Assembly: GCA_026416715.1 (NCBI GenBank)
Contig: JAOAEQ010000011.1
Span: 12,580-76,579, forward strand
Length of the DNA stretch: 64,000 bases
From: a bacterium
GTDB taxonomy: Bacteria; UBP4; UBA4092; JAOAEQ01
Direction: 5' to 3'
The position numbers were made by a program, and so were the translations under genes. The notes under the pieces are model-generated. The model had not been told where the DNA came from. It did not search any database and was given only the letters and a program-made list of their open reading frames with translations. Within the stretch, counting starts at the first letter, position 1, and each line of letters opens with the position of its first letter. Of the stretch, positions 7,596 through 8,708 are shown piece by piece.

Positions 7596-8708
7596 ATGCG
7601 ATATTATATTGATTTATTTTCTCCAGAAACCGCAAAAGCTTTTGCAGATTCATCTCAAGATGTAACTGGGTTTCGTATTTCTCGAAAAACTTATGTAGAA
7701 AATCAAAAAATCGGCCTTGGCGACAGATTTATTTGTTATGTTACGAGGATACAAAGATTTATAGGTGTATTAGAAATACAAAGCGATCCTTATATTGATA
7801 ACATACCAATACTTACTGCGGAAAACGATCCCTTTGTGTTAAGGTTCAAAGTAAAAACGCTTGTTTGGTTACCATTAGAAAAGTCTATACCTATCCATAT
7901 TGATGAATTATGGAATAACCTTTCTTTTACAAAAGGGCTTGCTAAAGACAACCTTAGATGGATATTTATGGTTCGTGGTTCTCCTAAGCTTTGGCCGCAG
8001 AAAGATTGCGAGCTTATTGAAAAAGCATTGTTGGAACAATCTAAAATTCAGAAAGATTACAGCTTTTCCGAAGAAGAATCTAGTAAATTAAAACCTCAAA
8101 AAATAAGAGTAAGTGATAAAAAAGAAATAATAGTATCGGTACCAGAGGAAGAAGTTACAGAAGAAATTGAGATTAAAGAAGAAGATAGGAAAGCAATCGC
8201 TATTCAAGCTAAACTTGCGGAAATTGGAGAAAAACTCGGCCTGAAAATATGGTTACCAAATAGCGATAGAGTTAAAGTTTTAAGCATTTGGAAACCTAAA
8301 AATGAAGACATACTATTAAACGAATTACCCTTAGTCTTTGATGATACAACACTTAAAACAATAAGAAATATAGATGTTTTATGGATAAAAGGACGTTCGA
8401 TCGTTAGAGCTTTTGAAGTAGAACATACGACTTCAATATATTCTGGGATTCTAAGAATGGCAGATTTATTGGCACTTCAACCTATGCTCAATATTAAAAT
8501 TCATATTGTAGCGCCTTCTGAGCGTAAGGAAGCTGTTTTCAGACAAATAACAAGACCGGTTTTTTCTTTAATCGGCGAAAACTCTCTTTCGGAAGTATGC
8601 TCTTATATTTCATATGATTCGATTATAGAATTAGCTCAGGAAGAAAGATTAGAGTTTATGAATGATACAATTGTAGATGAGTATTCTGAGTTTTTTGGTG
8701 AACAATAA
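7596..8708 (+). CDS. EVE (PUA-like) domain fused to a PD-(D/E)xK-superfamily-like nuclease domain; putative modification-dependent (type IV) restriction endonuclease
   Basis: The N-terminal ~150 aa match the EVE fold pattern (YYIDLFSPE..., GDRFICYV...GVLEI.SDPY, LRFKVK, WIFMVRG..LW). After an acidic linker (EEEVTEEIEIKEED), the C-terminal domain shows a D...ExE pattern (IDVLWIKG...RAFEVEH), the BamHI/BglII-like PD-(D/E)xE variant. The gene is markedly more AT-rich than its neighbours. Confidence 0.6.
   Translation: MRYYIDLFSPETAKAFADSSQDVTGFRISRKTYVENQKIGLGDRFICYVTRIQRFIGVLEIQSDPYIDNIPILTAENDPFVLRFKVKTLVWLPLEKSIPIHIDELWNNLSFTKGLAKDNLRWIFMVRGSPKLWPQKDCELIEKALLEQSKIQKDYSFSEEESSKLKPQKIRVSDKKEIIVSVPEEEVTEEIEIKEEDRKAIAIQAKLAEIGEKLGLKIWLPNSDRVKVLSIWKPKNEDILLNELPLVFDDTTLKTIRNIDVLWIKGRSIVRAFEVEHTTSIYSGILRMADLLALQPMLNIKIHIVAPSERKEAVFRQITRPVFSLIGENSLSEVCSYISYDSIIELAQEERLEFMNDTIVDEYSEFFGEQ

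Follow-up and report, generated by a model that had tools for sequence, protein, structure and literature searches.

Several described enzymes join a sensor for modified bases to a nuclease in a single polypeptide. EVE–HNH enzymes, the group of VcaM4I and TspA15I, have been characterised both biochemically and structurally (PMC6765204, PMC7897488), and the solved structure of VcaM4I is the paradigm of base flipping into an EVE pocket (PMC7897488). In 2020, Bell, Wolf and Koonin listed fusions of EVE to PD-(D/E)XK nucleases and predicted them to be type IV enzymes (PMC7641849). This article examines a gene with the latter architecture, found on the + strand of a 64,000-nucleotide stretch of a bacterial contig (JAOAEQ010000011.1), referred to throughout as the window. 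Its product combines an N-terminal EVE domain with a C-terminal nuclease domain of the NmeDI_C family, and is probably a stand-alone, nucleoside triphosphate (NTP)-independent type IV (modification-dependent) endonuclease with the layout of a type IIS enzyme. The protein is a new member of a predicted, known architecture and not a new category. A preceding sequence-only reading of the window had also proposed a type IV EVE–nuclease; the domain fusion and the lack of a methyltransferase support that proposal, whereas the likeness to BamHI and the solitary status that went with it have to be given up.

With VcaM4I and TspA15I, the window protein shares an N-terminal EVE domain of ~150 residues, a linker of ~30–40 residues and a C-terminal nuclease; like them, it is predicted to be stand-alone and NTP-independent, and to work without a methyltransferase. 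It differs in its nuclease, which is PD-(D/E)XK (NmeDI_C) instead of HNH, and in its reader, a member of the PH1033/UPF0310 branch that has diverged too far from the VcaM4I reader for HMMER to align the two. The nuclease half relates to R.NmeDI from Neisseria meningitidis, a type II/IIS-like enzyme (12/7 RCCGGY 7/12), with homology over the C-terminal 180 residues. Both consist of an N-terminal recognition domain, a linker and a C-terminal cleavage domain, but the N-terminal domains are unrelated, no cognate C5-methyltransferase or Vsr accompanies the window gene, and a modified rather than an unmodified target is expected for it.

MspJI and YenY4I also fuse a modified-base sensor (PUA/SRA-like) to a PD-(D/E)XK nuclease. 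The window protein is expected to behave like MspJI, whose cuts fall at a fixed distance from the modified base. However, the sensors (SRA-like, EVE plus DUF3427) and nucleases (D..QxK, DUF3883) of MspJI and YenY4I are all unlike those of the window protein, and no sequence homology to either enzyme was detected. As YenY4I was the sole PUA–PD-(D/E)XK case in a 2019 architecture screen, the EVE–NmeDI_C family falls outside that screen. The class described by Bell, Wolf and Koonin has the same architecture and inferred function; it is treated generically there, and the NmeDI_C family is not confirmed among its examples. The literature search found no paper characterising an EVE–NmeDI_C protein. 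END nucleases (PMC12191111) were considered as an identity and are unrelated, being composed of PLD and iEndoIII.

Domain architecture and the reader domain

An intact open reading frame (ORF) of 370 amino acids with an ATG start spans exactly 7596–8708, and its product matches, at 100% identity, the NCBI protein MCX7919159.1 from a metagenome-assembled genome ('hypothetical protein N3A72_06035 [bacterium]'). Its parts, in window coordinates, are:

7596–8708 (+): EVE-like reader, linker and NmeDI_C nuclease, whole ORF
7596–8045 (+): residues 1–150, EVE/UPF0310 (PUA-like), predicted modified-base reader (profile, AlphaFold2, Foldseek)
8046–8162 (+): residues 151–189, acidic, low-confidence linker (AlphaFold2, sequence, alignment variability)
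8163–8705 (+): residues 190–370, NmeDI_C (PF27126) PD-(D/E)XK cleavage domain
8373–8375 (+): codon of D260, start of strand β2 (IDVLW), predicted metal ligand (conservation, strand assignment)
8415–8423 (+): codons of E274-V275-E276, end of strand β3 (AFEVEH), equivalent to (D/E)xK with E replacing K (conservation)

The N-terminal 150 residues had earlier been said to align convincingly to EVE. This overstates the single-sequence evidence, in which Pfam PF01878 (EVE) covers residues 32–89 only and scores 15.3 bits, below the cut-off of 23, but profile and structure uphold the assignment itself. The NCBIfam model PRK00809 matches residues 23–143 of the single sequence (E=8e-5). A 107-sequence family alignment (A2), used as a profile against the PDB, retrieves PH1033 (1wmm) with E=3.7e-8 (query 1–143, target 1–144) and MJECL36 (2p5d) with E=1.6e-6, again covering the whole domain.

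The AlphaFold2 model of the protein has a mean predicted local distance difference test (pLDDT) score of 88.8, and above 90 in the EVE region. The reader is modelled as a six-stranded barrel with a helix between β1 and β2 (strands (E) and helices (H) at E3–8, H10–18, E23–26, H28–36, E44–49, E54–61, E82–91 and E131–133), a topology that agrees with the published description of EVE domains (PMC7641849). The structure comparison proposed with the sequence-only reading thus supports EVE: the top Foldseek match of the reader is PH1033 (1wmm; template modelling (TM) score 0.76, probability 1.00), followed by dozens of YTH readers of N6-methyladenosine (m6A). Many homologs carry precomputed PF01878 matches and the NCBI name 'EVE domain-containing protein'. 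By profile and predicted fold, the N-terminal domain is an EVE domain of the archaeal-type UPF0310 branch, and this assignment is sound. PH1033 and MJECL36 are the closest solved relatives of the reader (24% identity, TM 0.70–0.76, full-length alignment); unlike the window protein, they are stand-alone archaeal proteins of 145 residues that lack a nuclease domain and for which experiments have shown no ligand.

Invariant reader residues in the family are F8-S9-P10-T12, G25, D43, Y48, R54, F84, W91 and W122. Going by their positions in the sequence, they may be comparable with the VcaM4I pocket residues Q10/T11/E15, W22/P24, W82 and Y130 (PMC7897488). The linker is variable in the alignment, and pLDDT falls below 50 at residues 169–191.

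The cleavage domain

The C-terminal domain, for which the earlier reading could name no family, belongs to one that has a name: Pfam PF27126 (NmeDI_C) is precomputed on P0001, a sequence identical to the window protein. The PADLOC profile REase_II also matches (E=2.9e-14), over profile positions 167–312 of 351 only. The link to NmeDI is made through the Pfam family name and this 351-position profile, NmeDI itself having 351 residues.

In the structural model, the domain has the α-β-β-β-α-β core of a PD-(D/E)XK nuclease, with an acidic residue opening β2 and the (D/E)xK-type motif on β3. The motifs IDVLW and AFEVEH occur in the ORF as previously noted; the acidic residues, which had been placed near 284, 300 and 302, are really D260, E274 and E276 (codons 8373–8375, 8415–8417 and 8421–8423). 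The canonical lysine of (D/E)xK is not present; E276 occupies its place in an ExE variant that is conserved family-wide. D260 is invariant both in A2 (107 sequences) and in A1, a set of 45 representatives bearing other N-termini, and E274 and E276 are conserved in at least 90% of either set, which answers the earlier concern about conservation among homologs. A D...ExE nuclease core therefore stands, but BamHI/BglII is not its closest fold. A Foldseek search of the C-terminal domain against the PDB gave no significant match. A sequence search of the PDB gave no real match either, the only hit, a galactoside acetyltransferase, being noise (E=0.29). Metal-dependent cleavage has been shown in the family only for NmeDI (PMC2095814).

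The E274/E276 motif is lost only in one divergent full-length relative, P0241, which reads AFQITS for AFEVEH; both catalytic glutamates are gone while D260 and EVE are retained. Judged from its sequence, P0241 may be a reader that no longer cuts.

An exhaustive search with the C-terminal domain (E≤1e-3) yielded 1,536 representative clusters at 50% identity. An EVE-like N-terminus is present in 46 of the top 150 representatives. Among 45 others, Mrr_N is found in nine, and DnaA_C-HTH, ParB (ParB_N plus HTH_ParB) and an HNH-repeat in single cases. Since the N-termini are mixed and matched in this way, NmeDI_C can be regarded as a generic cleavage module mounted on alternative DNA-recognition heads. 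Plasmids contribute the C-terminal domain only, in 178 records (64 of them from Enterococcus) at 35–43% identity. These plasmid proteins have 419 residues and the PGAP name 'type II restriction endonuclease'; examples are L087 2745–4004 (NZ_CP084269.1) and L088 2754–4013 (CP099476.1), where L numbers denote loci of relatives. No neighbouring methyltransferase was found at these two plasmid loci, and the N-terminal region of ~250 residues has no Pfam or NCBIfam match. The 'type II' label of the plasmid proteins may be wrong.

Distribution and selection

More than 5,000 matches to the full-length fusion are found when sequences are clustered at 90% identity. In the best 120, identity to the window protein is 62–84% over 98–100% of its length; their sources are Patescibacteria, Bacteroidota, Deltaproteobacteria, Elusimicrobia and DPANN archaea. 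A second clade, whose members share ~50% identity with the window protein, is frequent in Chloroflexota, Cyanobacteria, Acidobacteriota and Nitrospirota. In ~185,600 genomes (one per species), 471 loci were confirmed, the best 80 all being full-length. No full-length fusion was found in INPHARED phages, or in PLSDB at a coverage of at least 80%; in IMG/VR, a relative occurs on 5 of 2.9 million viral contigs.

When genomes are compared, their DNA is similar only within the ORF, with 79% for an Ignavibacteriaceae metagenome-assembled genome (MAG), and ~70% for Draconibacterium and for an Aenigmarchaeota MAG. Synonymous divergence (dS) is saturated (1–4 or not computable), non-synonymous divergence (dN) is 0.12–0.30, and dN/dS is ~0.06–0.12. 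Because dS is saturated and dN is low, the high protein identity reflects strong purifying selection on both domains, and not only recent transfer. The window copy retains all family-invariant residues and is therefore probably functional as a protein. What deserves notice in the EVE–NmeDI_C family is that it is very widely distributed, evolves slowly and carries a cleavage module of the type IIS kind, and that it occurs with a small helix-turn-helix cassette at tRNA genes, described in the following section.

A decayed putative regulator and a tRNA-associated cassette

The composition of the nuclease gene is foreign. Its GC content is 0.328, against 0.405 window-wide, and GC at third codon positions is 0.22, against 0.41–0.44 in the adjoining genes. 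A tRNA-Ser(GGA) gene lies 389 bp upstream of the ORF, so that the description of an AT-rich gene at a tRNA was accurate. It had also been called solitary. The flanks are indeed housekeeping in character (PMT_2 glycosyltransferase, membrane protein, M19 dipeptidase, EamA, M55 D-aminopeptidase), but a decayed gene of the XRE helix-turn-helix (HTH) type lies directly upstream. What is found here is the degraded form of a cassette of two genes beside a tRNA, and not a unique, solitary gene; the domain architecture of the protein had already been predicted. The elements upstream of the nuclease gene are:

7117–7207 (+): tRNA-Ser(GGA), probable integration site of the cassette (ARAGORN)
7290–7384 (+): non-coding leader also present in relatives, roughly the left boundary of the conserved cassette (DNA alignment with L008, L009 and L007)
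7385–7577 (+): decayed XRE-family HTH pseudogene with in-frame stops and a frameshift (three-frame translation, HTH_3 match, tblastn)

A sigma-70-type promoter could not be detected in the stretch from the tRNA to the nuclease ATG. The earlier reading had seen no methyltransferase partner, and no DNA methyltransferase signature was found across the whole 64-kb window.

The stitched HTH peptide reaches the gathering score of Pfam HTH_3 (23.6 bits, E=5.4e-5), and tblastn with the intact 68-residue homolog of L009 finds the window remnant with E=7e-5. Intact homologs of 62–68 residues stop 6–20 bp before the nuclease ATG in L009 (Saccharibacteria; HTH at 6781–6984), L016 (Sungiibacteriota; 6810–6995) and L017 (Gammaproteobacteria; 3076–3264). 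The HTH gene is decayed in the window, L007 and L002/L008, and missing from most of the 86 relatives' loci whose surroundings were analysed. The non-coding sequence upstream of the HTH gene is common to the window, L008 and L009 by DNA alignment; relative to the latter two, a deletion of ~56 bp in the window takes out the HTH start codon and the putative promoter/operator. In L007 (Patescibacteria, 1065–1505) the whole cassette is decaying: the HTH gene has a stop codon and the nuclease is cut to 146 residues, with 78% protein identity over the remnant. In L029 (6816–6995) the HTH gene is cut exactly at a tRNA-Gly(TCC), which ends 4 bp before the HTH 3' half; this boundary may be a recombination junction.

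An ATACTAT-type repeated motif is found 5–40 bp upstream of the HTH start in L008, L009, L016 and L017, and in L016 it forms a GTATAG...CTATAC palindrome. It could be a C-box-like operator, or simply the −10 box of a near-leaderless transcript; in the window, the corresponding region has been deleted. In relatives, a small XRE-type HTH gene directly upstream of, and co-oriented with, the nuclease gene recalls the C-protein cassettes of restriction–modification (R-M) systems. In contrast to these, there is no methyltransferase that would make a delay necessary, the HTH gene is decayed here and missing from most loci, and the C-box is only putative. As the nuclease remains intact where the HTH gene is decayed, the HTH protein would be a dispensable controller rather than an essential antitoxin.

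In the window and its three closest relatives, unrelated genomes from four different lineages, a tRNA-Ser lies upstream of the gene (window 7117–7207, L007 737–821, L008 6323–6410, L009 5238–5323). The anticodon is GGA in the window, and TGA, CGA and GGA in the relatives; tRNA-Ala, -Gly, -Val or -Leu adjoins other family members. The simplest reading is that a small cassette of HTH and nuclease genes is carried by tRNA-targeting integrative elements. An integrase is absent from the window, and a search around the gene revealed neither a convincing scar of integration nor a convincing direct repeat of the 3' end of the tRNA. At the left end of the leader (window ~7299–7312, L008 ~6646–6660) there is a 'GGTTCGAAC'-like sequence that resembles a tRNA T-arm. 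It may be what is left of an att site, but its shortness permits no call.

Genomic neighbours of relatives

Within 5 kb on each side of the gene in the 86 loci, 751 flanking ORFs were clustered, and the recurrent clusters only were annotated. Every neighbour family is limited to 11 of the 86 loci or fewer, which rules out an obligate partner gene. N6-adenine methyltransferases (type I or IIG) are near the gene in 11 loci, directly abutting it in five; tyrosine integrases are near it in six, ResIII/HsdR helicases in five, and Mod-type methylases (N6_N4) in four. Other neighbour clusters are generic, and single loci have PIN and DUF433/DUF5615 toxin–antitoxin pairs or decayed R-M fragments. Such surroundings mark an accessory gene that stands alone and frequently ends up in defence or mobile islands; it does not belong to a multi-gene system. 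In two Bacteroidota loci, L025 (8141–10521) and L031 (3369–6971), large type IIG-like proteins abut the EVE–nuclease gene on the same strand; their domains are DUF7149, DUF7814, an Eco57I/MmeI methyltransferase and TaqI_C.

Proposed mechanism and alternatives

With sensor and nuclease in one polypeptide, the protein has the composition of a type IV enzyme. The EVE domain would bind DNA and flip a modified base into its conserved pocket, while the flexible acidic linker would tether a sequence-non-specific NmeDI_C module and possibly auto-inhibit it, as the linker of VcaM4I does. D260, E274 and E276 would bind Mg2+ or Mn2+, and cleavage would occur at a fixed distance from the recognised base; a double-strand break would probably require dimerised cleavage domains, as in FokI, NmeDI or MspJI. 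In a host that lacks the target modification, only incoming modified phage or plasmid DNA would be cut, which would give the enzyme a role in defence. The gene is horizontally mobile and probably arrived as an XRE-HTH and nuclease cassette beside tRNA-Ser. Candidate targets are bases of the 5-methylcytosine/5-hydroxymethylcytosine (5mC/5hmC) type (as for VcaM4I), N6-methyladenine (6mA; as for YTH) or a hypermodified base. Since methyltransferases of the m6A type frequently adjoin the gene, a broad 6mA specificity is weakly disfavoured.

Some properties of the gene suggest a role outside defence. Its conservation across phyla and domains is unusually strong for a defence gene (63–84% identity, dN/dS ~0.1 with saturated dS), DNA similarity between genomes ends with the ORF, and ~80% of the loci lie outside recognisable defence islands. 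The protein might then serve DNA maintenance by removing aberrant or damaged bases, or be a selfish nuclease. Either is improbable: the gene is thinly and patchily distributed (471 loci in ~185,600 species genomes), the composition is foreign, there is no conserved synteny, tRNAs and integrases adjoin the gene, and pseudogenised copies exist (L007), all of which indicate an accessory, horizontally moving gene and not a housekeeping one. Nor do repeats or target duplications point to autonomous mobility. A toxin in a two-gene, toxin–antitoxin-like module is suggested by the XRE-type HTH gene that abuts the nuclease gene in L009, L016 and L017 and has left traces in the window, L007 and L008. 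Proteins of the XRE-HTH type commonly serve as antitoxins, and toxin–antitoxin pairs adjoin the gene in L004 and L006. However, most loci have no HTH gene, and in the window and L008 it is decayed while the nuclease ORF is intact and under purifying selection, so the nuclease is not lethal without it. A dispensable, C-protein-like controller fits the arrangement better, and a toxin is very improbable.

The nature of the substrate leaves two further alternatives. The second-ranking structural matches of the reader, behind PH1033, are YTH readers of m6A in RNA, many homologs carry the JGI label 'predicted RNA-binding protein', and RNA has been predicted as the target of some type IV-like systems (PMC11090510). 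A nuclease directed at modified RNA (tRNA, rRNA or phage transcripts), acting in abortive infection or stress response, nevertheless deserves little credence. The nuclease is homologous to the cleavage domain of a DNA restriction enzyme, NmeDI; NmeDI_C is also fused to the DNA-binding Mrr_N, DnaA_C and ParB; DNA R-M systems recur as neighbours; and the sole solved EVE–nuclease fusion binds DNA (PMC7897488). An orphan type II enzyme resembling NmeDI, cutting unmodified DNA at a specific sequence, would agree with the PADLOC label 'REase_II' on the C-terminal domain and with the PGAP name of its plasmid-borne relatives. Such an enzyme would be lethal to a host without a methyltransferase, which is absent from the window and not consistently present in the 86 loci. 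Moreover, the match to the NmeDI-type profile (167–312) is to the cleavage domain and not the recognition domain, and the N-terminus is an EVE reader; this alternative is scarcely credible.

Within the preferred reading as a type IV endonuclease, a more specific proposal can be formulated. EVE(UPF0310)–NmeDI_C proteins would form a distinct, slowly evolving, pan-prokaryotic group of fixed-distance type IV cutters, with a reader for something other than 5mC/5hmC (for instance a hypermodified base, or 6mA in a particular context), travelling in some lineages as a tRNA-targeted cassette with an HTH controller. As a whole this is unlikely; it would bring phage defence a new specificity, and the mapping of DNA modifications a new enzyme. 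Should the type IV prediction hold, the family would be among the more widespread stand-alone modification-dependent nucleases, reaching many bacterial phyla and several archaeal lineages, and could supply enzymes whose cuts are placed at a set distance from a modified base. It is this property that has made MspJI and AbaSI useful in epigenome mapping. Purifying selection and the spread across domains suggest a well-defined, widely met target modification, and its identification would reveal which phage DNA modifications are common in nature.

Other features of the window

A pair of tRNA genes, tRNA-Met(CAT) and tRNA-Leu(GAG), is located at 11107–11296, 2.4 kb downstream of the nuclease gene. 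The GC minimum of the first 20 kb (0.282) falls at 19001–19500, in an intergenic segment that precedes an ORF at 19380.
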